The notes: generated by a model not told the origin, from the sequence alone. Counted from the stretch's first letter, positions 38,672 to 59,697 are shown. The stretch: DNA of 64,000 bases from Eubacteriales bacterium (GCA_045120465.1 JBGVEW010000052.1:22635-86634); one strand, 5' to 3'. Numbers and translations: made by a program.

Positions 38672-40906
38672 TTATTTGCGAATGCAGAGCGTATGCTTAT
38701 TGAGATAAACGAAGGATGCGGTTCCGGCAATTAACATACAGGATAGGTGATATGCCGCAATGGTGAGCGGATGGAGCCATTCAAAGGGGGCTCCAAAGCT
38801 GATGATAGAGAGAACGGTTGCCGCCACCGCACCAAACGCGCTTGCCGCGTATTGCAGGTACAGTCCAAAGGTGCGTGCGGTACGGATGGCTTTTGCCGCG
38901 TGCAGGGGATATACGATATCCTCGGGGCGGTCCAATGCCACGGCACCCGTGTCGCAGGAACGCAAAACCGTTTCCGGCTCGTACTTTCCGAGCTTGATCA
39001 CGCGGACGTGTGCGGCGTTTTCTTCACGGCTGATTTGGAGGAACCGTTCGTTGAGATTGGGATCGTAGGATTGGATCGCAACTGCGGTATCGATATCCGA
39101 CAGATCGTTTGCCAAAATCTCAAACGAGGGGTTGACGCTGTATTCGATCTCATAGCTGACTTTCAGAATGCCGTCAATAGCAACGTACAAAATCGAGGTG
39201 TTGGGTGTGCGGCGAAGTGCGCGGTCGGAGCTTTCCTTAGGGACTCGGATGCCGCACTTTTTCAAAAACTCGGCGTTTCCCGCAATCATGTGGTACTGAT
39301 TGTCAACCACTGCCTCAACACCGTAATCCGCGATGCGGACAAAGGCAACTGAGGGGTCTGCACTCTTGGTGGCGTAAGATTCGCCAAGACCTGCGAGCGT
39401 GCCCCCGATCTTGCGGAACAGAATCCCTGCTAAACGCAGATCCCGGCGGAAATCATCACTCTCCCGCATTGCGATCTCGGTGCATTTTTCAACGTTGTAA
39501 AGGTCGGTGTCCGAAAAGATCACCGTTTTGGATTCTCCAAATTCCTGTACCGCTTCCTCACCGACCAGCGCACAGTTGTATCGCGCAAGCAATTTGTTGG
39601 CGCGGCAGAGCGGGAAAAAGAAGGACAGGGTCTCGGTAAAGGGGGCTGCGATCATCAAAACTGCCATAAAGGCGGAAAATGCCGCAAAGATGCTTTCGGT
39701 AACGACCAGCGTTACGAACGCACAGATAAAGCCAACGGCGGGGGAGAGCCCCAATAAAACGTGGAAGGGCTCGTGCGAATCCTTGGTCGTGTTAAATCGG
39801 CGGAAAAATCCCGTTACCGTTTCTGCCTGTTGCACGCGATAAAAGCTTTCGTCAATATCGTCGTTGATGATCTTGACCAGCTTTTTGCCTTGGCGAAGCT
39901 TCTTTTTACGAGGGGTGGTGGGTTCCAACACGGTTTTGATGCCCTCCGTGCTCAAAAGACGGAAGATCCGCATTTCGGAAACCAGACGCATGGTATCGCA
40001 AAAAGCGAGAAGGAGCAGGATGCCGCACGCGATAAAGTTGACGCGGAGCATTTCCTCCGTGGTAAAAAGCGATACCACGTCATACAGTACGGTTAGAGGC
40101 AGAATTGCCGCGATCGCGGAATAGGGGGAGGGCTTGAGCTTGAAATAACTGCGAAGCCCGGCGTTAAACTGCCGCCAAGACAGCACCGATACGCCGACCA
40201 GAATACAAAGCGAGAGGATTGGCAAAACCAAAGGATTCTCTCTTGCAAACAGTACGTACGAACCGCCTATGAGCGTGGGATGATCCAAAAACAAAAGGAG
40301 GATGGTGGCAAGTGCCGTAAGCAACGTGCGCAAGAGCAGAAAATTGCGATCGTGCAGATAAGTGGCAATAATCGCTGCTCGGCTGTGCTCGTTCACGTCC
40401 TCAATGCCGCAATAGCCGAATGCCGTGCGGTAATTTTTGTGCTGGTTCTTATTCATGCGCATAAAGTGATCGCGCTTGAGCTTTTTCAAGTTTTCGTATC
40501 CGACCACGCGGCCAAGCTCACTTTCGTAGCCCAGCTCCAGCATCATGGCGATATCGTCCTCTGAAAATCCGCTCTTTTGCCGGATCAATTCCAGCGCCGA
40601 CATTTTTTGCGCCGCTTGCCGTTCGCGTCGTTCTTTGATCTTGTGAAAGAGATTTTGCGGCTTGGTGTCGGTGGGGATTTCTTCGGGGGTGTCAAAAGGG
40701 ATCTCTTCTGGAGATTCTTCAACAATCTCGTCAAGTGCCTCATCCAGCCCTTCGTCGGTGGGCAGATGCGTGTCTCCCGTTTGATGTACGCGACGGATCT
40801 TTTTTTTCGTCAAGGGTTTCTTTTGGGGGAAAACCGCAGGAGCGTCCGTTGAGGATGCTTGGGATGTCGCATTGATTTGCGGATCCGTTGGTTGGTTTTG
40901 TTTCAT
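38672..40906 (-). CDS. Degenerate P1B-type ATPase-like membrane protein (all catalytic motifs replaced) with a ~190-aa charged N-terminal extension
   Basis: The TM layout and inter-motif segments follow heavy-metal ATPases. Examples are W-QFNAGLRSYFKLKP...YDVVSLF, IDESFY..ETVTG, NCALVGEEAVQEFGESKTVIF, MIAGNAEFLKKCGI and ILYVAIDGILKVSYEIEY. However, CPC becomes APF, DKTGT becomes SDTDL (39500-39514), TGD becomes SYD, and GDGxND becomes GKYEPE. Confidence 0.6.
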   Translation of the reverse strand: MKQNQPTDPQINATSQASSTDAPAVFPQKKPLTKKKIRRVHQTGDTHLPTDEGLDEALDEIVEESPEEIPFDTPEEIPTDTKPQNLFHKIKERRERQAAQKMSALELIRQKSGFSEDDIAMMLELGYESELGRVVGYENLKKLKRDHFMRMNKNQHKNYRTAFGYCGIEDVNEHSRAAIIATYLHDRNFLLLRTLLTALATILLLFLDHPTLIGGSYVLFARENPLVLPILSLCILVGVSVLSWRQFNAGLRSYFKLKPSPYSAIAAILPLTVLYDVVSLFTTEEMLRVNFIACGILLLLAFCDTMRLVSEMRIFRLLSTEGIKTVLEPTTPRKKKLRQGKKLVKIINDDIDESFYRVQQAETVTGFFRRFNTTKDSHEPFHVLLGLSPAVGFICAFVTLVVTESIFAAFSAFMAVLMIAAPFTETLSFFFPLCRANKLLARYNCALVGEEAVQEFGESKTVIFSDTDLYNVEKCTEIAMRESDDFRRDLRLAGILFRKIGGTLAGLGESYATKSADPSVAFVRIADYGVEAVVDNQYHMIAGNAEFLKKCGIRVPKESSDRALRRTPNTSILYVAIDGILKVSYEIEYSVNPSFEILANDLSDIDTAVAIQSYDPNLNERFLQISREENAAHVRVIKLGKYEPETVLRSCDTGAVALDRPEDIVYPLHAAKAIRTARTFGLYLQYAASAFGAVAATVLSIISFGAPFEWLHPLTIAAYHLSCMLIAGTASFVYLNKHTLCIRK

Positions 40907-41824: not shown

Positions 41825-42112
41825 AGATGTAAGGGGTGTCCTTTCCTGACGTCCGAGTGCGTCGATTTTATTACTGATTATAATTATAACATGAAAAATC
41901 TTTTTTGTATAGACTATTTTCGAAATTTATCCTGCTTTCGGGCAGTTTTCGTTCGACTTTACACGACAGAAAACCAGAAAAAGGGAGAAGAGGAGTGCGG
42001 AACGCGTCGAAAAAGACAAATAGGCAGTTTGCACAACATGATAAAAAACGGGAGTCCGAAGGCAGTAAAAACGATGAAAAACAAAAAAATAGAAAAATGT
42101 TAGAAAAAAGAC

Positions 42113-42141
42113 TTGACAAAACGAAACAGTTGTGGTATCAT
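42113..42141 (+). promoter_or_regulatory. Promoter for tRNA-Ser
   Basis: TTGACA (42113-42118), 17 nt spacer, TGg-TATCAT (42136-42141), 14 nt before the tRNA 5' end. Confidence 0.65.
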
Positions 42142-42155
42142 ATATAAGTCGGCAT

Positions 42156-42247
42156 GGAGAGATGGCTGAGCTGGTCTAAGGCGCACGACTGGAAATCGTG
42201 TTTAGGCTAATACCCTAACGAGGGTTCGAATCCCTCTCTCTCCGCCA
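42156..42247 (+). tRNA. tRNA-Ser (anticodon GGA), long variable arm, genomically encoded CCA
   Basis: GGAGAGA acceptor stem paired with TCTCTCC, D arm GCT-GAGCTGGTCTAA-GGC, anticodon loop CTGGAAA, 19-nt variable arm, T arm GAGGG-TTCGAAT-CCCTC, discriminator G + CCA. Aligns position by position with E. coli tRNA-Ser. Confidence 0.93.
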
Positions 42248-42248
42248 G

Positions 42249-42286
42249 AAAAAGACTCAGGATTGGATACAATCCTGAGTCTTTTT
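42249..42286 (+). terminator. Intrinsic terminator after tRNA-Ser
   Basis: AAAAAGACTCAGGATTG-gatac-AATCCTGAGTCTTTTT. Confidence 0.8.
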
Positions 42287-42290
42287 CAGC

Positions 42291-42457
42291 TAAATCCGCC
42301 TTCTGCGGAATAAATCCACTATCGTGGATGAAATCGCTACGCGATGAAATCTTGCTTCGCAAGGTTAAGGGAGGCGGATTTAATTTCATCTGAAGCCGCA
42401 GGCTGAAGATTTCATCCGAGCTTGCTCGGATTTCATCGTGCAACGCACGATTTCATT
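42291..42457. repeat. Tandem array of seven mini-hairpins arranged as two inverted sub-arrays
   Basis: Hairpins at 42295-42309, 42314-42329, 42333-42345, 42351-42363, 42388-42410, 42414-42431 and 42435-42451. Most stems begin ATC and end GAT. Spacers are GAA in the first four units and TTC in the last three. AAATCCGCC (42292-42300) is complementary to GGCGGATTT (42373-42381). Confidence 0.75.
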
Positions 42458-42528
42458 AAAGATGCAAGGCTACGTCTTGATTTATTTGTGAAAGTGTGTT
42501 ATAATACTCTCAAAGGGAGTGATTATAA

Positions 42529-43095
42529 TTGACAAAAAGTGAATTTGGAAAGCATATTATAGTCTCTTCGCTGCTAACAGTAGTGGCAATAGTAGTGATT
42601 ATCTCATTCTGTGTAATTATGTTTGATAAATATTCCAAGCCAAGCGAGGAGAACACCTCTATTTCAAGCGGTACTGTTGCGGATGTTTATTATGCCAGTG
42701 GAAAAGATGTAGTCATTGTTGAAATGTCTGATGGAGAACAATTTCAACTTGTATATCCGTGGCTCCTCAAAGATCTATACGATGCAATCGGTTATAACCT
42801 TGATCAGCTTGCGGAGCTCTTGGAGGGGCAAAAAGTTGAATATCGTAAAATGGACAACTTACCTTGGGTGGTGGAAATTTATATCAATGACATTGTGATT
42901 GACAATAACAAAATGACCTCCGAGGAGATTGATACAACATATGTTGGTATTGTGATTATAGGTCTTATAATGCTGGCATTTCCTATCTGTGGAGACGTAG
43001 CATACATAAAAGCGAAGCAGAAGATTTACAGAAAAGCTGAAAAGAAACGAGTCAGAAGTGCAAAAAGAAAAGCGAACAAATTGCAAAACAGTTGA
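42529..43095 (+). CDS. Hypothetical membrane protein (2 TM, basic C-terminal tail)
   Basis: TTG start with AGGGAG upstream, in an AT-richer stretch. N-terminal TM, ~110-aa soluble domain, second TM, K/R-rich tail. No family recognised. Confidence 0.55.
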   Translation: MTKSEFGKHIIVSSLLTVVAIVVIISFCVIMFDKYSKPSEENTSISSGTVADVYYASGKDVVIVEMSDGEQFQLVYPWLLKDLYDAIGYNLDQLAELLEGQKVEYRKMDNLPWVVEIYINDIVIDNNKMTSEEIDTTYVGIVIIGLIMLAFPICGDVAYIKAKQKIYRKAEKKRVRSAKRKANKLQNS

Positions 43096-43144
43096 CCTTT
43101 TGTTCGCTTTTACCTCGATTTTTGACCTTTTTATCAGTATTAGG

Positions 43145-43189
43145 CATAAGAAAAGGGACATTCCACCAAGGAATGTCCCTTTTCTTATG
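43145..43189. terminator. 20-bp perfect hairpin (terminator-like) abutting an inverted tRNA-Ser 3'-end fragment
   Basis: CATAAGAAAAGGGACATTCC-accaa-GGAATGTCCCTTTTCTTATG. TGGCGGAGAGA at 43188-43198 is the reverse complement of tRNA-Ser positions 42237-42247. Confidence 0.6.
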
Positions 43190-43591
43190 GCGGAGAGAAC
43201 CAAACACGAACACTGCCTTGCAAAGCAAGGCTGGGGTTTGCATTCGCCGCCCGAAGGTCGGGGAGCTTGCTCAGCAGACGAAGGGTGAGCGATTCTTCAA
43301 ATCCGTTGGCGGATTTGAATACCCATCTCGCATCATTTTGCGAAAGCGATACAAATTGGTTGAAACATCTTGAATTTTCTATATAATCGTGATATAATAC
43401 GCATGATGAACAAAACTTAATAGCCTTGGCATTTTCGAGACAAGAGGGCACTATGCTTTTTCTTTGTATTCTATTCACCGTTAGAATTTGATACAAATAC
43501 GAATTATTATCGGATGAATTGTGGATATGTTTGGGTGTTATTAAGTTGCTGCAGAAACAATCGGGATTTGTATTTTTTGGAGGAAAGAACT

Positions 43592-45541
43592 ATGAAAAAA
43601 CTCGTAACATCATTTTTATCGGTATGCATGTTAGTTTTCCTTGTAACAATTCTTGCGGCTTGCAATGCGGGGAACGGTTCCACAACCGAGTTGACGGAAG
43701 GCTCAAAGAATCCCCCAACACAAGAGCCGCCAATAGAGGGGCTGAAACCCGGAGAGTTTGAATTTGAGTTGAATTCTGACGGTAACTCTTATACGATAAC
43801 AGATTTTGGAAAAACCAAGGGCGAAATCATCATCCCTGAGAAGCATCAAAACCTGCCCGTAACGGCGATTGGAAATAACGTTTTTTCGGGTAGCACCGCA
43901 ATCACAAAGATTGTAATTCCCGATAGCGTGAAAACAATCGGGCATAATGCTTTTAAAGATTGTACCGCTCTTTTGGAGATCATGCTTGGCGGCGGTGTCG
44001 AAAGCATTGGAGCAAGTGCTTTTGCAAACTGCTTTTCTCTTACGGAAATTACTTTGCCACAGGGTCTGACAAGTATTGGGGAGGGAGCTTTTGAAAATTG
44101 CTATTGTCTGATTCAAATCAAAAATCTCTCTTCTATCAAGCTGACTTGCGGTTACAATAATAACGGTCACGTTGCGTATTACGCGGAAAACATCTACACA
44201 AACGATATCGGTGAAAGCAAGCTCCAAAAAAGAGACAACTGTATTTTTTACGTTGACGAATCGACCGATACCTACTATTTGATCAAATACATTGGAAGCG
44301 AAACGAACGTTGTTACACCGGAGGGTGTGGAGAACAAGCCGTACACCGTTCGCAATTTTGCCTTTGCTGCTACAAAAGTGACGTCGGTTGAAATCGCCGG
44401 TGGTGCGACAAAAATTGACTCCAATGCTTTCGTCGGATGCTCACGGATGGAGAGTGTTCTGATCGGGGATAGCGTTACCCATCTTTCTAAAAACGCGTTT
44501 ACATCCTGCGGTAAGCTGAAAAACGTGACGATTGGCAAAAATGTCAGTGTGCTGGAGAGCCCGACGTTTTACGATTGCGATTCGATCGAAAACATTTACT
44601 TCCATGCAAAAAATGCAGTAAACACCTACGAGGTTGATGATGGAAATTACATTTTCTCCAATCCGCAGGGCTGTGACACCGTAATCAGCATCAAAATCGG
44701 TGCCGAGGTTATTCGTATTCCAGAAAATTGGTTTTTCGGTCATAACGTGGGCAGCATTCAATTCGACAGTCAAAGTGTTTGTGAGAGTATCGGCAACGGC
44801 GCATTCAGCAATCATAAAAAGATTACCACTCTTGAACTTCCCGATAGTGTGACGATGGTGGGTGACTTCGCATTTAACAATTGTGAAGGGCTTGTAAGCG
44901 TGAAAATGAACGGTGTTACCAGTATCCGTACCGGTGCATTCAGCAATTGCAAAGCTCTTAAAACGGTTTCGGCAAAAAATGCGGTTAGAATTAGTCGCTT
45001 GGGATTTTCAGGTTGCGGTTCCCTGACGGATATCGATTTGGGTAGTCAATTAACGGAAATAGGTGAGAGTGCGTTCCAAAATTGTGTGGCGTTGAAGCTT
45101 ACCTTGCCGGCTACCGTAACGAACATCGGCGGTAGCGCGTTTGAAAATTGTACGTCTCTTGCAAATTTAGTGTTCCCGGAGGGGCTCACTACCATTGGCG
45201 ACTATGCTTTTACAGGGTGTACTTCTATTACAAATGTTGAACTTCCCAATACGGTAACTTATTTGGGACAATCCGCTTTTGCAGGATGCACGTCGTTAAA
45301 ATCCGTGAGACTGGGGAACCAAGTTGCCGCGATCCATAGTAGGACATTTGCCAATTGTACCTCGCTTGAAAGCATCTACTTTGGAACAAGTGTAACTCGG
45401 ATTGGCAAAGATATATTCTACGGTTGCGACACATTAGATATTTATTATGATGGACTTTCCTCTCAATGGGGACAAATTGAGGGATTCAGAAGCGTATTCC
45501 ATAGAATTCACTGTGCGGATACGACCATCGACAGAAGTTAA
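43592..45541 (+). CDS. BspA-type leucine-rich-repeat surface lipoprotein
   Basis: Signal peptide with lipobox LAAC (MKKLVTSFLSVCMLVFLVTILAAC). Many ~23-aa LRR_5-type repeats (IPDSVKTIGHNAFKDCTALLEI, LPQGLTSIGEGAFENC...). GGAGGAAAG RBS before ATG 43592. Confidence 0.85.
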   Translation: MKKLVTSFLSVCMLVFLVTILAACNAGNGSTTELTEGSKNPPTQEPPIEGLKPGEFEFELNSDGNSYTITDFGKTKGEIIIPEKHQNLPVTAIGNNVFSGSTAITKIVIPDSVKTIGHNAFKDCTALLEIMLGGGVESIGASAFANCFSLTEITLPQGLTSIGEGAFENCYCLIQIKNLSSIKLTCGYNNNGHVAYYAENIYTNDIGESKLQKRDNCIFYVDESTDTYYLIKYIGSETNVVTPEGVENKPYTVRNFAFAATKVTSVEIAGGATKIDSNAFVGCSRMESVLIGDSVTHLSKNAFTSCGKLKNVTIGKNVSVLESPTFYDCDSIENIYFHAKNAVNTYEVDDGNYIFSNPQGCDTVISIKIGAEVIRIPENWFFGHNVGSIQFDSQSVCESIGNGAFSNHKKITTLELPDSVTMVGDFAFNNCEGLVSVKMNGVTSIRTGAFSNCKALKTVSAKNAVRISRLGFSGCGSLTDIDLGSQLTEIGESAFQNCVALKLTLPATVTNIGGSAFENCTSLANLVFPEGLTTIGDYAFTGCTSITNVELPNTVTYLGQSAFAGCTSLKSVRLGNQVAAIHSRTFANCTSLESIYFGTSVTRIGKDIFYGCDTLDIYYDGLSSQWGQIEGFRSVFHRIHCADTTIDRS

Positions 45542-45763
45542 ATTTTTGAATATTCACATGGATTTGACGAGCGTATTATCAAGGCACGGCTAAATTCAGA
45601 AAAGTATAACGGTTATTGCTCGTCGATGCGTTTGCGGTGTAATCTTTACGGTTCACCCTCGCCACCCAAAAGCGCCCCACCGCCACCGCGGTGGGGCGCT
45701 TGATTCCGTATTGACGAAAAATTGACTCATTATAGCAAAAAATTATCCTCTCTCTCCCATCTC

Positions 45764-45792
45764 TTGACCTTCTTTCAAAACTGTGCTACAAT
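45764..45792 (+). promoter_or_regulatory. Promoter for the beta-helix protein gene
   Basis: TTGACC (45764-45769), 17 nt spacer, TGc-TACAAT (45787-45792). Confidence 0.6.
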
Positions 45793-45827
45793 AAAACGAC
45801 TGAATTTTGACGGTGCGGAGGTGCGTT

Positions 45828-47330
45828 ATGCTTGCAACGGATGCGTTTTTGAAGCATTTGGACGAAATGAGCGAGGCTCGGAAGCGAGAAATTTTATCCG
45901 CCCCCGATGGTGTGGCGGTAACGGGAAATCGTTATTACGTTTCTGCCGACGGAAAGGATGAAAACGATGGAACGAGTCCTGCGCGCGCGTGGAAAAGCCT
46001 TGCGCGTGTGTCTGCGGCAGAGCTTGCGGAGGGGGATGCCGTGTATTTTCGTCGCGGCGACCTCTTTCGCGGCTCCTTAAAAACCTGCCCCGGGGTCACC
46101 TACGCGGCCTTTGGAACGGGCGAAAAGCCTCGTTTTTATTCTTGGAATTACGATCTTGCAAATCCCGATCTCTGGGAGTTGTTCGATGAGGCACATCACG
46201 TCTGGAAGCTGACCGAAAAGATCCTTGATTGCGGCACGCTGGTGTTTGACGGGGGAGCGGCGCACAGCCGCAAGCTGATCCCGTCCTATATCGGCGGTCG
46301 GTTCGTTTGCCGCGAGGATGAGAGCAGCCCCTTTGATATGTCGCGCGAGATGACGATGGATCTCGATCTGGTCTGCTTTTATGAGGAGCGAATGACCACG
46401 CGTCCCTCAAAAGGGGAGGACTTTCCAATTCCCGTGATTGATTCGGAGAGCTACGGCTCTTTGTATTTGCGGTGCGACAGAGGTAACCCCGGGGCGGTCT
46501 TTGGGAGCATTGAGGCACTTGCAAAGCGCAATATGATCTGCGTAGGCGGAAATGCAAACGTTCGAATCGATAACCTTTGCATCAAATACGTCGGCGCGCA
46601 CGCCATTGGTGCGGGGGGAGAGTGTGTGGTCGGTTTACACGTTACCAACTGTGAGATCGGTTGGATCGGTGGAACGATCCAGCATTATCTCGGTACCGAT
46701 CCCAACTATCCGGAGGGCGGACGCGGTACGGTAACGAGATACGGAAATGCAGTTGAGATCTACGGCGGGTGCAAGGACTACACGGTAGAAAATTGCTATA
46801 TCTATCAGGTTTATGATGCGGGGATTACCCATCAGGTCACCACGGGAGGCTCTTTCCGTGAAATGAGAGGAATCCGTTACCGAAACAACCTGATTGAGCG
46901 TTGCGTGTATTCCATTGAGTATTTTTTGGAAAAGACGATGGGAGATACCGAGAGCTATATTGCGGATTGTGAGATCTCGCACAACGTCCTGCGCTTTTCG
47001 GGGTACGGATGGGGACAACAGCGCCACAACACGCATACGCCCGCGCACATCAAGGGGTGGAGCTTTGAAAATACCGCAAGGGAGTTTTCCATCCACGATA
47101 ACGTATTTGATCGCGCCGCCTATCGGATGCTGCATCTGGTGGCACGCGAGGTGGAATCCTTGCCCGATATGTACAATAACCTCTACGTGCAGCAAAAGGG
47201 GTTGATGCTGGGACAATATGGTGCCAACCGTGAGGCAGAGCCGCCGATCCTTTCGTTTGACGAGCACACCGAGCAAACGGTGGAGACTGTTTTGGATGAC
47301 CAAAACGCCAAGATCTATATCATAGAATAA
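45828..47330 (+). CDS. Right-handed parallel beta-helix repeat protein (pectate-lyase-fold; glycan-active enzyme candidate), no signal peptide
   Basis: YYVSADGKDENDGTSPARAWKSL N-terminal signature and repeated beta-helix coils (NCEIGWIGG, GNAVEIYGGCKDYTVENCYIYQVYDAGITHQ). ATG 45828 has GGAGG 6 nt upstream. Confidence 0.7.
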   Translation: MLATDAFLKHLDEMSEARKREILSAPDGVAVTGNRYYVSADGKDENDGTSPARAWKSLARVSAAELAEGDAVYFRRGDLFRGSLKTCPGVTYAAFGTGEKPRFYSWNYDLANPDLWELFDEAHHVWKLTEKILDCGTLVFDGGAAHSRKLIPSYIGGRFVCREDESSPFDMSREMTMDLDLVCFYEERMTTRPSKGEDFPIPVIDSESYGSLYLRCDRGNPGAVFGSIEALAKRNMICVGGNANVRIDNLCIKYVGAHAIGAGGECVVGLHVTNCEIGWIGGTIQHYLGTDPNYPEGGRGTVTRYGNAVEIYGGCKDYTVENCYIYQVYDAGITHQVTTGGSFREMRGIRYRNNLIERCVYSIEYFLEKTMGDTESYIADCEISHNVLRFSGYGWGQQRHNTHTPAHIKGWSFENTAREFSIHDNVFDRAAYRMLHLVAREVESLPDMYNNLYVQQKGLMLGQYGANREAEPPILSFDEHTEQTVETVLDDQNAKIYIIE

Positions 47331-47337
47331 ACAACAA

Positions 47338-47372
47338 GGGGGACTCAAACGCTGTGGGCGTTTGAGTCCCCC
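47338..47372. terminator. Hairpin between convergent beta-helix and GRE genes
   Basis: GGGGGACTCAAACGC-tgtgg-GCGTTTGAGTCCCCC. T-rich only in the minus-strand reading direction. Confidence 0.65.
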
Positions 47373-47424
47373 AAAAAAACGGGGCTCGGCAGATTTAGGC
47401 GAGAAGCGTCGAATGTGACAGCCG

Positions 47425-49668
47425 TTAGGGTTCATAGGATTCGAGACGGCGGATGTAGGCTTCCTGCTGGGGTGCGGGGACGTTGTTCCAAAGAGCGTTC
47501 CATCCGCAAATACGTACCTGTAGATTTCGATATTGATCGGGATTTTTTTGCGCGTCGCGCAAGGTCTTCGTTTGAAAGACGTTGAATTGGATCGACATTC
47601 CGCCGCCCTCCATATACGCCATCACCAAAGCGCGCATGGCGGCAAGTCCGCCCTCACCGCTGACGGCAGAGGGATGGAGCATGACGTCCGTGCAGAAGGA
47701 TTCCAACCACAGATAGGGGGAGAGCGCAAGGGAGGAGCGCAACAGTGCCGTGACCCCGCCGCGATCCATTCCGGGGGTGGGAGAGGCGTTTTTGGAGTAT
47801 TCCTCGCCCGCCATACGTCCGTCGGGGGTGGCACCCGTTTGTTCGCCCTGCCATACGAATTGCATGGCGGTGTGAATACAGGATTTATAAATGCCGCCGC
47901 GCGCGTTGGGGCGGTAATTGATCTTTCCACTCAGCCAGTGCGAGAGTGCCTGCGCATAGCGGTCGGTCTCCTCGTCGCCGTTTCCGTACTTGTGAGGAGA
48001 ATTTTTGATGCGCTTTTGCAGGAGCTCGTAGCCCTGCCAGTTGCGCTCCAAGGCAAGGGCAAGCTCCTCAAGGCTCAGGGTGTGCGTGTCGTAAACGAAT
48101 TCCTTGACCGCCATCAAGCTGTCAACAAAGCTTCCAAAACCGCAACAAAGAATGGCGGTGTTGTTGTATTTGACTCCGCCCGCATAGCCGTCGCGCGCAT
48201 TTTTCAAGCTGTGCTCTACCGTTGCGGAGTAGAGCGAGGACGGGTTGACCTCTTCAAGATGCGCTTCGATGCGATTGATCGATGCGATTACGCGCTCGAT
48301 AAAGGAGCTCAACTGCTTTTGTACGGCGGAATAGAAATCTTCAAAGGTTGCAAAATCGGAGAGCTTGCCTGTGTGGATGCCCACCTGTTCTCCGGTTTTT
48401 GCGTCGTAACCGTCGCTCAGGACGTAGAGAACGGATTTGAGCAGATTGATATAGGCATCCGCGGTGGAAATCTCGTTGGCGCGCACGCCCGTTTCGTAGC
48501 AACCGCGAAAATCCATATCCAAGGCTTCTTCAAAGCTGGCACCGTAGCTCATAACGGCACGCATATGCCCGGGCTCACAACAAAAGACGAGGGCTCCTTC
48601 ACCCGATCGCGCGATATCCAGCGTGAGATTCCAAAATTCGATGGGGGTGTTGGTATTGACCTTGATTTGGATTTTGGGATTGTAGATGTGAAGCGCGCGG
48701 TAGGTGTTGAGAATATCGTAGGAAAGATGGTTGACACGGGTCGAGCCGTCGGGGAACGTTCCGCCTAGATAAAACGGCTGTCCCCAGTAGTTTCCAATGG
48801 CGGAAAACTGCATAAAGAAGTAGCCAAGTAGCTCGCAAAGCTCCTCGCGTGCAACCCCGTTTTGCAGATCCTTTTCCCAAAAGGGGAGCAGGGTGTGGTC
48901 AAGTCCGTTTCCAAGCGAGCGCACCTGAAAGAAATCGACCGATTCGCTCACCATAAAATAGAGGTACATCAATTGCAACGCGTCATAGGTATTTTGCGGT
49001 GCACCGTCGCGCAAATGTGCAAGGGAGGTGGCAATGGCGGGGGCTTTGGCGTGTGTCTGCTTCAACGCGTATGCGTGCAAGCGATCCAAAAAGCGGATGG
49101 TTGCGGAATATTCGATCTCAATTCCGTCAAAATACGCCTTTTGCTCGTCTGTCAAAGCACCTTTTGTCTCATGATGCCGTCTCCAAGTACGAGCACGCTC
49201 CAAAATCCCCGGAAAGCCGAGGTTCATCAAAGCCTCCCAGTCGGGAACGATATGATCGTAATCCACCCACATATTTACCGCACCCGAGCGGTTGAAGAGC
49301 GCCATCTGTGCGCCGTCCTCGGGGAGCGTTTTTTCAAACAGCTCGCGGTCCCATTTGCGAACGGTCACGTCCCCAATGGCGCGGTTCCACGTATAGACCC
49401 CAACAAACCAGTCGTGCTCGTTGACGTCGATCCGTGTGTGATCCAGCACGTACTCTACTGCCATCGCCTTAAAAACGGGGCGTGGGAGATGACCGTGCGT
49501 GGCTTCCAAACGGCGCAAGCCTTCCTTGATCTCCTCGTCCGTGTCTCCCGTTGAGGGATCGTACTCGTATCCGTGGTACGCCATACGCACGTAAGGGTCA
49601 AAGGGTTGGTCCTGGCGGTGGTATTTGTTTTCCAGATAATCGCGGTCTGATTGCAGATTTTCAAACAT
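47425..49668 (-). CDS. Glycyl radical enzyme, PFL2/dehydratase-like family, substrate unknown (GRE-1)
   Basis: C-terminal glycyl motif QVRICGWNA (Gly codon 47503-47505). Cys loop DFRGCYETG (Cys codon 48499-48501). PFL2-like N-terminus. ATG 49668 has GGAGG 8 nt upstream. Confidence 0.85.
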   Translation of the reverse strand: MFENLQSDRDYLENKYHRQDQPFDPYVRMAYHGYEYDPSTGDTDEEIKEGLRRLEATHGHLPRPVFKAMAVEYVLDHTRIDVNEHDWFVGVYTWNRAIGDVTVRKWDRELFEKTLPEDGAQMALFNRSGAVNMWVDYDHIVPDWEALMNLGFPGILERARTWRRHHETKGALTDEQKAYFDGIEIEYSATIRFLDRLHAYALKQTHAKAPAIATSLAHLRDGAPQNTYDALQLMYLYFMVSESVDFFQVRSLGNGLDHTLLPFWEKDLQNGVAREELCELLGYFFMQFSAIGNYWGQPFYLGGTFPDGSTRVNHLSYDILNTYRALHIYNPKIQIKVNTNTPIEFWNLTLDIARSGEGALVFCCEPGHMRAVMSYGASFEEALDMDFRGCYETGVRANEISTADAYINLLKSVLYVLSDGYDAKTGEQVGIHTGKLSDFATFEDFYSAVQKQLSSFIERVIASINRIEAHLEEVNPSSLYSATVEHSLKNARDGYAGGVKYNNTAILCCGFGSFVDSLMAVKEFVYDTHTLSLEELALALERNWQGYELLQKRIKNSPHKYGNGDEETDRYAQALSHWLSGKINYRPNARGGIYKSCIHTAMQFVWQGEQTGATPDGRMAGEEYSKNASPTPGMDRGGVTALLRSSLALSPYLWLESFCTDVMLHPSAVSGEGGLAAMRALVMAYMEGGGMSIQFNVFQTKTLRDAQKNPDQYRNLQVRICGWNALWNNVPAPQQEAYIRRLESYEP

Positions 49669-49714
49669 TCGAGCGACCTCCAAATTGATGAATATACTTT
49701 CATTATATGTTTTT

Positions 49715-49776
49715 TTTCGAAAAAGTCAATGAAGATTTTGATCATACTTGACTTTTTCGAAACAAAAAGCTATAAT
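49715..49776. promoter_or_regulatory. Divergent promoter pair built on a perfect 15-bp inverted repeat
   Basis: TTTCGAAAAAGTCAA (49715-49729) and TTGACTTTTTCGAAA (49748-49762). Each arm supplies a TTGACT -35 element, spaced 17 nt from TATAAT (49771-49776) on the plus strand and 16 nt from TATAAT on the minus strand. Confidence 0.7.
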
Positions 49777-49800
49777 ATAGGCAGAAACGGAGGAATGGGA

Positions 49801-50562
49801 ATGGATTTTTTGTCATTTTCGGAGATCACTGTTACCAAAATTGTTTTGGCGATCTGTGTGGAAAAGGGGACTCCTTATCACCGCAATCGTCCGTCTCACG
49901 GTTTGGCTTTGCAGCTTGGCGGAAGGCGCGAATACCTTTTTGAGGACGGGACACGCTTTACGGTTGAAAAAAGCGGATTGCTCTATCTTCCCAAGGGATC
50001 AAGCTACAGCGTTCGCACGCAGGAGGCGGGAAAAACCTATGCCATCAATTTTGACGTGGATAGCGACGCGTCTTTTTCACCGTTTTCCATGAGGATCAAG
50101 GAGCCGTTTGCGTTGACCGAGGCGTTTGCCGCGGCGGAACGAGCGTGGATGGGATCTCGTGGGGGACGAGATGCGGAAATCCGTGCGCGTTTGTACGATA
50201 TTTTGGCATATTTGCAGCGGGAGCGCGAAGCGGGGATTCAAAGAGACGCGCGCAGAGGTTTGTTGCAAAAGGCGGAGCGTTATATCGATGAGCATTTCAG
50301 CAATCCCGAATTGCGAGTGAGGGAGATTGCCGCGGTATGCGGGATGAGCGAGGTCTATTTGCGAAAGCTTTTTCATGAGGAGCTGGGGATGACTCCCATT
50401 GCAAGAATCCGCGCGCACCGAATCGAGTACGCCAAGGGGCTGATCGCGTCCGGCTTTTACAGCATGAAAGAGGCGGCAACGCTTGCGGGATATGCGGATT
50501 ATTCCTACTTTTGCCGTGAATTTAAAAAAGAGACGGGCTGCGCACCGTCGGGGTATCGGTAG
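49801..50562 (+). CDS. AraC family transcriptional regulator
   Basis: Cupin-like N-domain and a C-terminal AraC HTH pair (EVYLRKLFHEELGMTPIARIRAHRIEYAKGLI...FCREFKKETGCAPSGYR). ATG 49801 lies 8 nt after GGAGG. Confidence 0.85.
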   Translation: MDFLSFSEITVTKIVLAICVEKGTPYHRNRPSHGLALQLGGRREYLFEDGTRFTVEKSGLLYLPKGSSYSVRTQEAGKTYAINFDVDSDASFSPFSMRIKEPFALTEAFAAAERAWMGSRGGRDAEIRARLYDILAYLQREREAGIQRDARRGLLQKAERYIDEHFSNPELRVREIAAVCGMSEVYLRKLFHEELGMTPIARIRAHRIEYAKGLIASGFYSMKEAATLAGYADYSYFCREFKKETGCAPSGYR

Positions 50563-50593
50563 GCAATCAAATTTTAATGGGGGATCATGAAAC

Positions 50594-50635
50594 GGGGGTG
50601 AGCCAAATGCAAAAACGCAGTTGGTACTCACCCCC
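50594..50635 (+). terminator. Intrinsic terminator-like hairpin after araC (degenerate member of the CAAATGC hairpin family)
   Basis: GGGGGTGAGccaaatgcaaaaacgcagttggtaCTCACCCCC. Confidence 0.6.
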
Positions 50636-50710
50636 GCAAATGATAGACAACGCAATCAAGTTTCGTCAATTTGCCTTCCCAAATGTATTGTACATTTGGG
50701 AAGATTTTTT

Positions 50711-51016
50711 TTATTTTGCAAGATCTTTCATTAAATTCAAAACGGCTTGTCTGGTTTGTGGTGAAAGAGCTTCGTAGGTTTCGATAAATTCTTTCTTTTT
50801 AGAAGGAATGGAAGCGTCACCGCTGTCTTCAAAAAATTCGGACATTGAAATTCCAAATGCTGTACAAAGATTTTCCAAGGTTGTAATGGACGGGAGTGTT
50901 TCACGATTAAACATATTGATAAGCGTAGATTGAGCAATTCCCGATTCTACCGAGAGTTTATAAATTGACCATCCTCGATTCATGCGGAGCGTATTGATTC
51001 GTTTTAAAATATTCAT
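50711..51016 (-). CDS. XRE family helix-turn-helix transcriptional regulator
   Basis: MNILKRINTLRMNRGWSIYKLSVESGIAQSTLINMFNRETLPSITTLENLCTAFGISMSEFF is a classic Cro/C1 HTH. AAGGAGG RBS before ATG 51016. AT-rich islet. Confidence 0.85.
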   Translation of the reverse strand: MNILKRINTLRMNRGWSIYKLSVESGIAQSTLINMFNRETLPSITTLENLCTAFGISMSEFFEDSGDASIPSKKKEFIETYEALSPQTRQAVLNLMKDLAK

Positions 51017-51260
51017 AATGCTCCTCCTTAGTTCCTCTTTGTATATATTATAGTACACATTTGTAAAAAAATAATTACCCATATGTATTGACAATATAAT
51101 ACATTTGTGATATAATCAAGTATAAAAAGGGGACAAGATGTTTTGAAATCTTGATTCAACTAAAAGAGAAGGCGATAAGAGTGCAGATTTTTTATTAAAC
51201 TTTTTTGCAAAATCTATTAACTTTATTTAGCAGGTTTTTATTTTAAGAAAGGAATATTTT

Positions 51261-51707
51261 ATGGACAATCAAAAAGTTGACACACTGTTCGGTGGAATGA
51301 TTGTTATCATTTTGGGCATCGCAATTGCGCTCGTTATTCAATTTTTTATAGCAAAACAGTTTGAAAAAATTGCTATAATGAAAGGACATCCAAATGCACA
51401 TGCCTTTGCATGGTGCTTCTGGCTTGGTATTGTCGGATATATTTATGTTGCTACCTTGCCAAACATATCTTTAAATAATACCATTCTAAAAAACAAGGCA
51501 AATCCTACTACAAATGCTGCCTTTAACCGTTATACCTGCAATTCCATCATCAAGACCGAAAAAGTTACTTCCGGCAAATGCTTTGGATGTTATGAGTTTT
51601 ATCCCGATATATCTTTTTGCAGGATTAATAAAGGTAACAATACAGTTGAGTTTCCCGTATGTGACAAGTGTATAGAAAAATATGAGCAAAATGCAAAGAA
51701 TCGATAA
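51261..51707 (+). CDS. Small membrane protein with a C-terminal CxxC...CxxC zinc-ribbon-like module
   Basis: Two TM helices, then CFGCYEF...CDKCIEKY. AAAGGAA RBS. Divergent from the XRE gene, in the AT-rich islet. Confidence 0.6.
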   Translation: MDNQKVDTLFGGMIVIILGIAIALVIQFFIAKQFEKIAIMKGHPNAHAFAWCFWLGIVGYIYVATLPNISLNNTILKNKANPTTNAAFNRYTCNSIIKTEKVTSGKCFGCYEFYPDISFCRINKGNNTVEFPVCDKCIEKYEQNAKNR

Positions 51708-51710
51708 TTT

Positions 51711-51777
51711 GAGCGAGCCGCGTAAAACGGCTCGCTTTTGTTATACAATAAGAGGAGAAGCCATTGGGCTTCTCCTC
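51711..51777. terminator. Two back-to-back terminator hairpins between convergent genes
   Basis: AGCGAGCCG-cgtaaaa-CGGCTCGCT followed by TTTG (51711-51740). GAGGAGAAGCC-attg-GGCTTCTCCTC (51752-51777) has T-rich flanks. Confidence 0.7.
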
Positions 51778-51798
51778 GCATTTTTATCAACTTTTGAA

Positions 51799-52461
51799 TC
51801 AATAGTTCTCTGCGTGAACCTCAAAGTAGCTCTGGGGATGTGCGCAGGTGGGGCATACCTCGGGAGCATTGGTTCCGATAACGAGATGTCCGCAGTTGCG
51901 GCACTCCCAAACCTTCACCTCGCTCTTTGCAAAAACAGCAGCGGTTTCTACGTTGTGAAGCAGTGCGCGGTAACGCTCCTCGTGATGCTTTTCGATTGCG
52001 GCAACGAGACGGAACTTTTCTGCCAATTCGGGGAAGCCTTCCTTTTCTGCGGTCTCAGCAAAGCCCGCATACATATCGGTCCACTCATAGTTTTCGCCGT
52101 TTGCAGCCTCTACAAGGTTCTTTGCGGTGTCACCGATGCCGTTCAGCTCCTTGAACCACATTTTTGCGTGCTCTTTTTCGTTGTCTGCAGTCTTGAGGAA
52201 GAGGGCAGAGATCTGCTCGTAGCCTTCCTTTTTTGCAACGGATGCAAAATAGGTATATTTGTTTCTTGCCTGAGACTCGCCTGCAAAAGCAGCCTCAAGG
52301 TTCTTTTCGGTCTGCGTGCCGGCATACTTGTTTGCTTTGGGAGCTTCAACAATCTCCTCAAGCTTCTTTCCCTTGAGTCCGCACTTGGGGCAAACGGGTT
52401 CAACACCCTCGGCAACCTCAAACACTTCACCACACATCAGGCATCTGTACTTTTTCATCAT
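51799..52461 (-). CDS. rbr: Rubrerythrin with an extra N-terminal rubredoxin-like domain
   Basis: N-terminal CLMCGEVF...CPKCG, di-iron four-helix core ([35 protein letters not shown]) and C-terminal rubredoxin CRNCGH...CPTCAHP. AAAGGAG RBS before ATG 52461. Confidence 0.88.
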
Positions 52462-52493
52462 CGTAATCTCCTTTAAAAATCGTTTATTGTTTT

Positions 52494-52874
52494 TTATTTT
52501 TGATCGAATGGAACTTGACACTCCTTGCAAATACCGTAGTATTTTACGGAGCAGCTTTCTACAACGTATTCCTCGCTTGCAGGGGGGAACACGTTTGTGG
52601 GGGACGGCAGATCGATGATCTTACCGCAGGTCTTACAGGAAAAGTGCGCGTGACCGTCTATCACGGGATCGTATCTTGCACCCTCACCGGGGAAAATGAG
52701 GCGAATGATTTTTCCTTCTTCCTCCAGCACGGTAAGGTTGCGGAACACGGTGGCGCGCCCTACCGATGGATGCGTTTTGGAAAGTGCCTCGTACACCTCA
52801 ATTGCGGTTGGGTGATACAGAGAACACAATGCCTCATAGACGATATCACGCTGTTTGGTGGATCTTCGTTGCAT
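52494..52874 (-). CDS. Fur family transcriptional regulator (PerR-like by context)
   Basis: [12 protein letters not shown] wHTH start and two CxxC pairs (CKTCGKI, CKEC). Lies directly upstream of rubrerythrin. AAGGAGG RBS before ATG 52874. Confidence 0.8.
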
Positions 52875-54639: not shown

Positions 54640-55416
54640 TTATAATTGGATATGCCTTTCCGCCATCAGTGCCGCCTGCTTGCTCTCCCCCAATGCGTGA
54701 TAGGGGAGAAACGCTACGGAAAGATTGCGATCCTGACAGAATTGGCGGATTTTGTCACATTCCGCTCCTTCGTTAAAGTCGGGGATCACGGGCGTGCGGA
54801 TCAAGATCTGCGTTCCCGTTTTTCGAAGCTTTTCGAGATTGGAGAGAATGAGCGTGTTGTCTGCCCCCGTTCCGCGTCGATGCAGATCGGGGTCAAGACA
54901 TTTGATATCGTAAAGAAAAAGATCAACGAAGGGGAGCACGGCTTCAAAATGGCGGTAGGGAACCTGTCCCGAGGTGTCGATCGCAACGTGGATGCCGTTT
55001 TCGCGGCAATCCTTGGCAAGAGAAGCTACCTCTTGCGGGTAGAGCATACATTCACCGCCCGAAAAGGTCACGCCGCCACCCGTGGCATCAAAGTAGGGCT
55101 TGTCTGCCATGATCAGCTCGAACAATTCTTCCTTTGCGAAAGGGGTTCCGTAAAGCCGTTTCGCACCCGTTGGGCAAACGGCGGCACACGCGCCGCAGGC
55201 TGTGCAAGCGTTCTTGTGCGTGCAATTGTTTTGACAGGCATGACAGCCGACGCATTGCTCCTTAAACCAAGCAAGCTCAGGTTGGGGGGATTTTCCCTCG
55301 GGATTGTGGCACCAATAGCAGTTCAAGGGACATCCCTTCAAAAAGAGCACCGTGCGCAAGCCCGGACCGTCCGAGGTGGAGGAGCGGTGAACGTCAAAAA
55401 CCAAAGGGGTGCTCAT
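54640..55416 (-). CDS. Glycyl-radical enzyme activating protein (radical SAM, with ferredoxin-like auxiliary cluster region)
   Basis: DGPGLRTVLFLKGCPLNCYWCHNPE (CxxxCxxC) plus CVGCHACQNNC...CTACGACAAVCP. ATGA overlap with the upstream reductase stop. Confidence 0.9.
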   Translation of the reverse strand: MSTPLVFDVHRSSTSDGPGLRTVLFLKGCPLNCYWCHNPEGKSPQPELAWFKEQCVGCHACQNNCTHKNACTACGACAAVCPTGAKRLYGTPFAKEELFELIMADKPYFDATGGGVTFSGGECMLYPQEVASLAKDCRENGIHVAIDTSGQVPYRHFEAVLPFVDLFLYDIKCLDPDLHRRGTGADNTLILSNLEKLRKTGTQILIRTPVIPDFNEGAECDKIRQFCQDRNLSVAFLPYHALGESKQAALMAERHIQL

Positions 55417-56354
55417 GTCAATCCAACTCGATTCATCATTTCAAGCTCCTTATCGGTGAGGGGGAGCTCCAATCCGCGTGCGTTTTGCAAAAGCTGCTCG
55501 GGGGTTGCGGAGAAGAGCGGGATCACGCGCGGGAAGCCGTTGCAACGGTGGAGATTGGTCAGCCAAGCGATAACGAGCGCGCTGGGGTTGACTCCCTTTT
55601 CTGCCGCCATACTGCGGATGAACTCCAGGCGTTCACCGCCCTCGTACTCTGCGGGGAGCAGATCGGGATTCTCGTAAGCACCCTTGCACAGACAGGCGTA
55701 GGAAACGAGAGGCATATTCTTGTCGCAGAGGAAGCGCAAACGCTCGCGGTTGACCACCTCGTTAAAGGCGTATTTGGGAGCGGCGGAGAATTTGGGGTTG
55801 AGATAGCTCAAACGCTGTTGCATTACGGTGTAGGGCGTTTGTCCGCGGGCGGCGGCAATTTGATTTGCCTCTGCCAATCTCCAAGTGTCAAAGTTGCTCG
55901 ATCCCAGCGTGCGCACTTTGCCTTTTTTGACCAAACGGTCAAAGGCTTCCATGGTTTCTTCAATAGGGGTGTTCGTGTCATCGGTGTGCGCGTAATAAAG
56001 GTCGATGTAGTCGGTGCCGAGTTTGCGAAGGCTTTCCTCTACCCAGTATTCGATCTGCTCCTTTTTCAGTCCCGCGCCCTTTCCGTGGCGGTCAAAGCCT
56101 ACCTTGGTGGCAAGAACCACGCGGTCGCGGCAGCCTCGGTCTCGGAGCCATTCGCCAAGCAGGGTCTCGCTTTCGTCACCTGTGCCCGCCCAGTGCGCGT
56201 AGTTATTGGAGGTATCGATAAAGTTCCCGCCAAGATCCATATAGGTATCAAGGACGCGGTAGGACTCCTCTTTAGAGGTGGTGGAACCGAACATCATTGC
56301 TCCAAGAGCGATTTCGGAAACCTCAAGCCGGTTGGGAAGAAGTATTTTTTTCAT
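55413..56354 (-). CDS. Aldo/keto reductase
   Basis: LGAMMFGS...VLDTYMDLGGNFIDTSNNY, LYYAHTDD and RTLGSSNF AKR signatures; 313 aa. Confidence 0.88.
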   Translation of the reverse strand: MKKILLPNRLEVSEIALGAMMFGSTTSKEESYRVLDTYMDLGGNFIDTSNNYAHWAGTGDESETLLGEWLRDRGCRDRVVLATKVGFDRHGKGAGLKKEQIEYWVEESLRKLGTDYIDLYYAHTDDTNTPIEETMEAFDRLVKKGKVRTLGSSNFDTWRLAEANQIAAARGQTPYTVMQQRLSYLNPKFSAAPKYAFNEVVNRERLRFLCDKNMPLVSYACLCKGAYENPDLLPAEYEGGERLEFIRSMAAEKGVNPSALVIAWLTNLHRCNGFPRVIPLFSATPEQLLQNARGLELPLTDKELEMMNRVGLT

Positions 56355-59562: not shown

Positions 59563-59641
59563 ATTCGTTTCCCCCGTTTGTTTTGGTGATTCTATTATAA
59601 CAGAAAGGAAAAGGCTTGGGAATGTATTATTGTGATAAACC

Positions 59642-59670
59642 TTGACTTTTCTGCACAAAGATGATACAAT
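59642..59670 (+). promoter_or_regulatory. Promoter for the third araC gene
   Basis: TTGACT (59642-59647), 17 nt spacer, TACAAT (59665-59670). Confidence 0.6.
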
Positions 59671-59697
59671 AAAGCAGAGAAAGAGAGGGGGATTGAC

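Follow-up and report, generated by a model that had tools for sequence, protein, structure and literature searches.

The stretch of DNA analysed here, 64,000 nucleotides from a Eubacteriales bacterium (GCA_045120465.1, JBGVEW010000052.1:22635-86634; hereafter the window), contains two genes for glycyl radical enzymes (GREs). The subject of this analysis is one of them, GRE-1 (47425-49668, minus strand), which an original prediction had singled out as an orphan GRE with tryptophan in its glycyl motif and no activase of its own. The gene is an uninterrupted open reading frame (ORF) with an ATG start, preceded at 8 nt by the Shine-Dalgarno sequence GGAGG, and encodes a pyruvate formate-lyase (PFL)-like GRE of 747 aa, which we assign to a group defined below as the GW/GCYE clade. 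The protein matches the Pfam families PFL-like (6.7e-92), this match beginning only at profile position 153, and Gly_radical (2.3e-19). It is indeed short for a PFL2-type enzyme, as had been remarked, the solved ones having 764-850 aa; and with 23% identity to GRE-2 over 705 columns it is a second GRE and not a recent duplicate of the other.

The glycine loop, R719-I-C-G722-W723-N-A (47494-47514, minus strand), translates to RICGWNA, so the reported tryptophan is present, and Gly722 is the predicted radical site. The cysteine loop, G389-C390-Y391-E392 (48493-48504, minus strand), translates to GCYE and contains a CXE motif; C390 aligns with the catalytic cysteine of HypD, glycerol dehydratase (GD), HplG and PflD and lies, as expected of a finger-loop cysteine, in the middle of the protein. 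The codon of His139 (49252-49254, minus strand; translation YDHIV) was located by HMMER alignment to 1r8w. The glycine-loop fingerprint used in the field is RVxG[FWY] (PMC13450708, PMC11528403), and the full GRE fingerprint is RVxG[FWY]x6-8[FL]x4Qx2[IV]x2R (PMC13450708). The corresponding C-terminal region of GRE-1, RICGW-NALWNN-V-PAPQ-Q-EA-Y-IR-R, carries this superfamily fingerprint in its core and keeps the Q and the R; it departs in having V for [FL], where the family consensus is L, and Y for [IV]. An AlphaFold2 model of the protein (predicted local distance difference test 90.6, predicted TM-score 0.91) was matched by Foldseek about equally well to some 50 GRE chains (TMq 0.78-0.85, identity 18-25%), and GRE-1 is predicted from the model to have the ten-stranded beta/alpha barrel fold of GREs.

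All 120 best homologues of GRE-1 (57-100% identity, 744-748 aa) have the glycine loop R[VI][CA]GWN[VAI] and the cysteine loop RGC[YH]ETG. When 1.84 billion cluster representatives (50% identity) were searched exhaustively with HMMER, 4868 matches were obtained, and the best 150 of them were inspected. These are 30-51% identical to GRE-1 and mostly 680-750 aa long; G-W occurs in 127 and GCYE in about 130, while the canonical G-Y enzymes of 790-804 aa appear only at the bottom of the list of 150. The scores of GRE-1 against the clade representatives are 265-880 bits, compared with at most 249 bits against any solved GRE, and every characterised enzyme is more distant from it than are about 140 uncharacterised 50%-identity clusters. 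We therefore define the GW/GCYE clade by a glycine loop R[VIL][CSA]GWN, a GCYE cysteine loop and a length of about 680-750 aa, its members resembling one another more than any characterised GRE. GRE-1 has both loops and the length, and is closer to the members than to characterised GREs. Judged by these motifs and scores, it is a member of a large, coherent and biochemically uncharacterised clade of short PFL2-type GREs.

Residue conservation was scored over 115 diverse full-length clade representatives. R719, G722, W723, N724, G389, C390, Y391, E392, D136 and H139 are invariant or nearly so, as are R250, D257, K332, R618, N627, D661 and H665. G389 and C390 are found in all 115 representatives, H139 in 114, E392 in 109 and Y391 in 106, and every clade-invariant residue is retained in GRE-1. 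Six positions (Q248, Y300, R396, E399, Y406 and H599) vary between subfamilies. This combination of variable and invariant positions is as expected if the chemistry of the clade is shared and its substrates have diversified.

The same alignments indicate that both the tryptophan after the radical glycine and the short length are ordinary, clade-defining features and not anomalies. The original prediction had treated the tryptophan as a departure from the family signature, which does not hold: it falls within RVxG[FWY], is shared by all 120 close homologues and occurs also in the PFL2 of Archaeoglobus fulgidus. Whether the variant is common in a known subfamily had been named as a point that would count against novelty; tryptophan is universal in the clade, but the clade is not a known one. 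In our search of the literature (CC-licensed and bioRxiv full texts) we found no paper on the GW/GCYE clade, its motifs or its fusions to carbohydrate-active enzymes (CAZymes). A 2026 review of GREs points to whole clades without experimental validation (PMC13450708), and in its list of all characterised GREs there is no member of this one (PMC13450708).

Genomic context was examined at 80 loci from species-representative genomes, all of them uncultured metagenome-assembled genomes (MAGs). They come mostly from Clostridia of gut, rumen and faeces, with a single member of Kiritimatiellia and a single member of Lentisphaeria, and often there are several paralogues of the clade per genome. As a large and functionally dark group, delimited by motifs, linked to carbohydrate domains and abundant in gut and rumen metagenomes, the clade merits further work.

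When the 537 neighbour proteins from about 80 loci were clustered, only two recurred, an AraC-family regulator and a GRE activase; the rest were sporadic. A divergent AraC gene lies upstream of the GRE gene in 65 of the 79 relatives where this could be assessed. Enough flanking DNA was available for 77 relatives. In 53 of these the next gene downstream, on the same strand, encodes an activase, another 11 have one within about 4.5 kb (in nine of them downstream, with one to five genes between), and in 13 no activase was found. An activase is thus nearby, within 4.5 kb, in 64 of 77 family members, whereas GRE-1 has none of its own within the 64 kb. A query for activases among window ORFs of at least 80 aa found one only (54640-55416, minus strand). 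It belongs to the GRE-2 operon and is separated from the GRE-1 start, on the same strand, by 4.97 kb upstream and six genes, in agreement with the earlier statement that no activase adjoins GRE-1 and that the only one in the window is about 5 kb away. The other radical S-adenosylmethionine (SAM) gene of the window, 36024-38639, is of the DUF2344 type and was rejected as a GRE activase. Neither a second activase in the window nor an activase remnant 3' of GRE-1 was found; the GRE-1 stop lies only 94 nt from the convergent gene, and a terminator-like hairpin takes up this space, leaving no room for such a remnant.

In a neighbour-joining tree, the window enzyme and three relatives without an activase (L004, 79% identical; L001, 67%; L011, 66%) are monophyletic; P0004 (67%), which also belongs to this orphan subclade as its fifth member, likewise lacks the gene, and at least five further independent losses are scattered over the GRE tree. 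The orphan subclade retains the GRE and its AraC partner throughout. A shift of its glycine loops towards that of GRE-2 was considered and rejected, as the orphans read RICGWNA, RVCGWNV and RVAGWNV. The ancestral unit, as reconstructed from these gene orders and trees, is a divergent AraC gene, the GRE gene and a co-evolved activase directly downstream, with the activase lost in the window lineage. The description of GRE-1 as an orphan was accordingly right for this locus, which has no activase of its own, and misleading for the family, where a downstream activase is the norm and its absence a lineage-specific loss. For the original finding our result is mainly deflationary: every factual detail was confirmed and the interpretation was partly right, with the tryptophan being normal and the orphan state common and derived.

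The AraC-family regulator of GRE-1 (49801-50562, plus strand; 253 aa; Pfam HTH_18 and HTH_AraC) is divergent, as had been stated. Its best start, 49801, was chosen by the position of the Shine-Dalgarno sequence and by an orthologue of 253 aa, and lies 132 nt from the GRE-1 start. Two sigma-70-like sites, consensus matches only, occupy the interval: TTGACT-16-TATAAT facing GRE-1 (49702-49729, minus strand) and TTGACT-17-TATAAT facing AraC (49748-49776, plus strand), each matching at 11 of 12 positions. Directly 3' of the GRE-1 stop lies the intrinsic-terminator-like hairpin (47338-47372, minus strand), with a 15-bp stem containing 10 G-C pairs. Bracketed by a promoter-like site and a terminator hairpin, GRE-1 is a monocistronic gene, and control by the divergent AraC regulator is likely.

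Taken together, we consider it probable that GRE-1 is a functional GRE of the GW/GCYE clade that has lost its activase, is controlled by AraC and activated in trans, and acts as a C-O-cleaving eliminase or isomerase on a carbohydrate-derived compound. The analysis shows its motifs, predicted fold, selection and genomic setting; its chemistry, substrate class and activator are all inferred, and the mechanism is drawn by analogy from conserved residues and characterised GREs. The CXE motif is the mark of GRE eliminases and isomerases and is common to all that have been characterised, the sugar-phosphate enzymes YbiW and PflD among them (PMC13450708); in these enzymes its glutamate hydrogen-bonds to a substrate hydroxyl (PMC13450708). 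By this definition the cysteine loop of GRE-1, G-C390-Y-E392, is eliminase-like, as had been proposed, and a hydrogen-bonding role may be assigned to E392. The histidine expected as general acid in C-O-cleaving dehydratases is also present: H139 aligns with His164 of glycerol dehydratase (1r8w) and may, as proposed for that residue, donate a proton to the leaving hydroxyl. In the mechanism that we propose, a radical-SAM activase would take a hydrogen from Gly722, and the glycyl radical would generate a thiyl radical on Cys390. Cys390 would then take a hydrogen from the carbinol carbon of a small hydroxylated substrate while Glu392 of the CXE motif would deprotonate the same hydroxyl. The vicinal C-O leaving group would be lost, with His139 as the likely proton donor, resulting in 1,2-elimination or in ring-opening isomerisation, and the product radical would regain a hydrogen from Cys390.

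As to the activator, we lean towards a GW-type activase encoded elsewhere in the genome and acting on GRE-1 in trans. The alternative is that the activase at 54640-55416 (TIGR02494, 275.6 bits), a candidate trans-activator, serves both enzymes, so that the two GREs form a functional pair in separate transcription units. One activase for two enzymes had been suggested originally; it is possible but not the default, the activase having co-evolved with GRE-2-type enzymes. The GRE-2 cassette comprises, besides this activase, genes for AKR (55413-56354), GRE-2 (56385-58604; 739 aa) and EamA (58618-59808), all on the minus strand, and a divergent AraC gene (59698-60540, plus strand). Homologues of the window activase with 60-87% identity always occur in cassettes of this kind (divergent AraC, then EamA, a GRE with the loops RVTGYSG and GCNWCS, AKR and activase). 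In a tree of 72 activases the grouping follows the type of GRE next to which each is encoded: the 61 that adjoin GW-type GREs all fall into one clade, and the window activase lies in a separate cassette clade, 37-57% identical to the GW type. Its cassette context and its place in the tree mark it as the co-evolved partner of GRE-2. Moreover, activase specificity is tied to the sequence of the glycine loop (PMC13450708), and the loops of GRE-1 (RICGWNA) and GRE-2 (RVTGYSG) differ at four of seven positions. L004, finally, keeps an intact GRE-1 orthologue although the GRE-2 cassette is absent from its syntenic junction between GalT and a 917-aa gene; from this difference the cassette can be regarded as an indel of about 6 kb. 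Nor was an NCBI-sourced activase of about 80% identity found.

On the other side, the cassette activase is the only one in the 64 kb, and it lies close to GRE-1 on the same strand. Two genomes of the orphan subclade, IJW29 and IJW30, appear to hold a GRE-2-type cassette on another contig, as is suggested by near-contiguous NCBI accessions (MBQ9784370 with MBQ9783891, and MBQ9773703 with MBQ9773564). Related Clostridia have arrays with more GREs than activases, for example L007 with four GREs, four different glycine loops and two activases, and at L088 a single activase lies between two GW-type GREs. Sharing of the GRE-2 activase is thus conceivable, yet we regard it as doubtful and continue to favour a GW-type activase encoded elsewhere.

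The arrays and the cassette show further features. Three or four very different short GREs lie within about 22 kb at L007 (1-22235) and also at L015, L028, L033 and L065, with the glycine loops RVTGYSG, RVCGWNV, RVCGFSA and RVSGFSD and the cysteine loops GCNEWC, GCYETG, GCDSDG and GCNEVA. Each array GRE has its own divergent AraC gene, activases are fewer than GREs, and some of the paralogues adjoin genes for PTE, M20 peptidase, SDR or beta-lactamase-fold proteins. The five-gene order of the GRE-2 cassette recurs in several other Clostridia MAGs.

The substrate of GRE-1 is most likely carbohydrate-derived, that is, a sugar, a deoxy- or anhydro-sugar, a sugar acid or a polyol, most likely released by esterases, lactonases or glycosidases. 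In seven of the 150 nearest representatives an intact GW/GCYE GRE domain is naturally fused to a second domain (P0145, P0148, P0150, P0159, P0164, P0177 and P0262; a further fusion is P0398). In two of these seven clusters the partner is AXE1/CE7; in the others it is a GH2 mannosidase-like domain, a SASA carbohydrate esterase, a 3-keto-disaccharide hydrolase, a GH78 rhamnosidase-like domain or an unknown domain of 890 aa. The GH2, SASA and unknown-domain fusions are found on three, five and nine independent contigs, respectively. The N-terminal 890 aa of P0177 have no Pfam match, and their central 430 aa (about 222-651) no sequence match in the Protein Data Bank (PDB). P0177 and P0398 have signal-peptide-like N-termini, which would be odd given that GREs need a cytoplasmic radical-SAM activase. 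Genes occasionally found between GRE and activase in the GRE-1 family encode a SASA esterase, SMP-30/gluconolactonase, a PTE lactonase, a beta-lactamase-fold esterase or an EamA transporter. In one orphan group a GH35 gene lies 3' of the GRE gene, with an M42 peptidase gene ahead of it. At another orphan relative (L095, 491-7027, GCA_017456295.1) the AraC gene is followed, co-directionally and contiguously, by genes for GH123 and an AP_endonuc_2/xylose-isomerase-like TIM-barrel protein, which likely form one operon with it opposite the GRE. The glycan-derived substrate proposed originally on the strength of a beta-helix neighbour is thus supported by other evidence, the CAZyme fusions and the sporadic operon partners, while the neighbour itself, shared only with L004, says little.

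Several observations weigh against this interpretation of GRE-1. The fused GRE domains are only 30-39% identical to it, in a clade whose specificity positions have diversified, and in its family no neighbours other than AraC and the activase are consistently conserved. Peptidase-like proteins (M20, M42) and generic hydrolases also occur among the operon partners, which makes a non-sugar substrate possible. The best sequence match of GRE-1 is the hydroxyproline dehydratase HypD, and Asp447 of glycerol dehydratase has no conserved counterpart in the clade. As to expression, the RNA fragments described below could be DNA carry-over.

The substrate might instead be an amino-acid derivative resembling hydroxyproline, a small diol, or a xenobiotic or plant secondary metabolite set free by amidases and esterases. 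The best sequence and structure matches, HypD, HplG and the diol dehydratases, would fit such a substrate, as would the PTE, M20 peptidase, beta-lactamase-fold and SDR genes carried by neighbouring paralogous GRE modules and the fact that AraC regulators also sense aromatics. However, the substrate-binding Asp278 of HypD is Gln248 in GRE-1, whose score against the NCBIfam HypD model is 301 with a cut-off of 1100; pyrroline-5-carboxylate (P5C) reductase and microcompartment genes are lacking from the context; and five different CAZyme-type domains are fused to members of the clade. We hold a non-carbohydrate substrate to be unlikely, and retain a carbohydrate-derived one as the more plausible.

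That GRE-1 is a decaying or silent relic, non-functional since the loss of its activase, is very improbable. The absence of an activase in cis would agree with it, and so would the sparse RNA: metatranscriptome fragments map to GRE-1 in four of four bovine-gut RNA runs, at a depth of 2-3 that is too thin for a test of co-induction with the AraC or beta-helix genes. The 747-aa frame, however, is intact with all clade-invariant residues, and the promoter-like sites, the Shine-Dalgarno sequence and the terminator are preserved. The ratio of non-synonymous to synonymous substitution rates (dN/dS) is 0.09 compared with the 79% identical orthologue of L004, at dS of about 1.7, and the orphan subclade keeps both GRE and AraC; for the AraC gene itself dN/dS between the window and L004 is 0.20. 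These ratios indicate that GRE-1 is under purifying selection, with its frame intact, and is not decaying.

The convergent gene on the other side of GRE-1 (45828-47330, plus strand; 500 aa) was described earlier as encoding a cytoplasmic pectate-lyase-fold beta-helix protein. The orientation is correct and no signal peptide was seen by eye. The Pfam Beta_helix match is sub-threshold (E 0.0024), however, and the N-terminal 100 aa or so show a weak likeness to GH136 lacto-N-biosidases (7v6m, 1.2e-5; 6kqs, 8e-4), to which, with their relatives, they are closer than to any pectate lyase. The product may be a cytoplasmic GH136-like glycosidase. As a conserved partner of GRE-1 the gene was rejected; it is a neighbour whose only orthologue at the examined loci is in L004, and for this reason it is weak evidence on the function of GRE-1.

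Identical contigs from one gut-metagenome run, with an even depth of about 18-19, cover the region from 45.5 to 61.5 kb, which shows that the GRE-1 and GRE-2 loci really lie side by side and are not an assembly chimera. Runs X29 and X30 ('organism A') were metagenome-like and of low coverage and contributed nothing. Synteny of L004 with the window extends from SpoU through the beta-helix gene, GRE-1, AraC, an HTH gene, a 148-aa gene, rubrerythrin, Fur and GalT to the 917-aa gene. The G+C content is 0.41-0.45 at window positions 42001-46000 and 50001-52000, compared with about 0.52 elsewhere. Within the first of these stretches, 43514-45541 encodes a 675-aa BspA-type leucine-rich-repeat protein with a lipoprotein-like N-terminus, which may be a recent acquisition since L004 has different genes at that place. 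In the metatranscriptomes, contigs on the rubrerythrin gene (51799-52530) had depths in the hundreds to thousands, whereas the depth on the GRE genes was 0-3; the high value is probably mostly cross-mapping from related organisms at 92% likeness, and the contigs of run X1 break there. A 744-aa ORF without a Pfam match (38672-40906, minus strand) adjoins the SpoU methylase and DUF2344 radical-SAM genes; its orthologue in L004 (775 aa, same position) likewise has no Pfam match, and despite its length it is not a GRE.

More tentatively, the clade as a whole (some 140 clusters or more at 50% identity, mostly from Clostridia of gut and rumen) could be an unrecognised family of radical carbohydrate-active enzymes whose activases are shared in trans across dissimilar glycine loops, a proposal that we consider uncertain and rather less probable than its opposite. 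If true, it would mean oxygen-independent C-O cleavage (dehydration, ring opening, even lysis of glycosidic or ether bonds) on sugars or their derivatives, supplied by the esterases, lactonases and glycosidases fused or adjacent to the GREs, and the shared activases would contradict the current picture of one GRE and one activase. The hypothesis it offers, that anaerobic radical chemistry acts on sugar-derived substrates other than those of the recently found anhydro-sugar isomerases, is a testable one. The recurrent loss of cis activases in genomes with several GRE types is, in addition, a natural test bed for GRE-activase specificity, which is a practical bottleneck for the field.

Among characterised enzymes none proved to be a close relative. 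The scores of GRE-1 against NCBIfam equivalog models, with the cut-offs, were 301 (1100) for HypD, 250 (1000) for HpfG, 220 (1000) for HpsG, 199 (1050) for CutC, 175 (1150) for HPAD, 165 (1100) for IAD and 78 (994) for PFL, and the subfamily model PFL2-3 gave 319 (678); the identities HypD, GD, propanediol dehydratase (PD), CutC, IslA, HpsG/HpfG, HPAD, IAD and PFL were rejected on this basis. Clustering with a characterised GRE, which had been named beforehand as an outcome that would overturn the original prediction, was found neither by NCBIfam nor by Foldseek, in which GRE-1 is roughly equidistant from all PFL2-type structures. Orthology to HypD, GD, PD, CutC, IslA, HpsG/HpfG, HplG or YbiW/PflD can practically be set aside: the CXE motif and the fold are held in common, but every equivalog score falls short of its cut-off by a factor of 3 to 13, no solved GRE is more than 25% identical and all of them are about equally distant, and those roughly 140 uncharacterised clusters are closer.

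HypD (PDB 6vxc/6vxe) is the best match both by sequence (1.2e-72; 25% identity) and by Foldseek (TMq 0.82). It shares with GRE-1 the GRE barrel, a CXE motif (GCVE in HypD, GCYE in GRE-1), the dehydratase histidine (H139 in GRE-1) and an origin in gut Clostridia. It differs in its glycine loop (RVAGYS, compared with RICGWNA), in being about 40 aa longer and in having Asp278 at the position of Gln248, and the AraC-GRE-activase module of the GRE-1 family, unlike HypD, comes without proline-pathway genes. The second-best sequence match (1.3e-67; 25% identity) is the PFL2 of A. fulgidus (PDB 2f3o), a PFL2-type enzyme on whose function there is continuing debate (PMC13450708). Its loop RVAGWS has tryptophan after the radical glycine, like GRE-1, but it has the cysteine loop GCVE and 776 aa and is archaeal and hyperthermophilic, and its score places it outside the GW/GCYE clade (232 bits, compared with 265-880 for members). 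GRE-2, from the same organism, is likewise short (739 aa), AraC-linked and uncharacterised. Unlike GRE-1, it has the glycine loop RVTGYSG, an activase from a clade of its own and a conserved AKR and transporter, and its cysteine loop, GCNWCS, has no glutamate at +2, by which it is not a CXE eliminase.

The B12-independent glycerol and 1,2-propanediol dehydratases (PDB 1r8w, 5i2g) have the fold, the CXE motif and the equivalent of His164 (H139) in common with GRE-1 at 21-24% identity. Ser282 of glycerol dehydratase corresponds to Gln248, and GRE-1 lacks the microcompartment and aldehyde-dehydrogenase context of these enzymes. YbiW/PflD (PDB 8id7, 8id0, 8yjo), ring-opening isomerases of 1,5-anhydrohexitol-6-phosphate, are 22-23% identical to GRE-1 and have tyrosine in the glycine loop; their genes sit with phosphotransferase-system (PTS) and aldolase genes in Enterobacteria and streptococci, and nothing in GRE-1 points to a sugar-phosphate substrate of their kind. 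They share the CXE motif with GRE-1 and, as no other characterised GREs do, act on sugars; they cleave a C-O bond next to a carbinol radical, the chemistry that we propose by analogy for GRE-1. These anhydro-sugar enzymes, together with the diol dehydratases, would be its closest mechanistic analogues.

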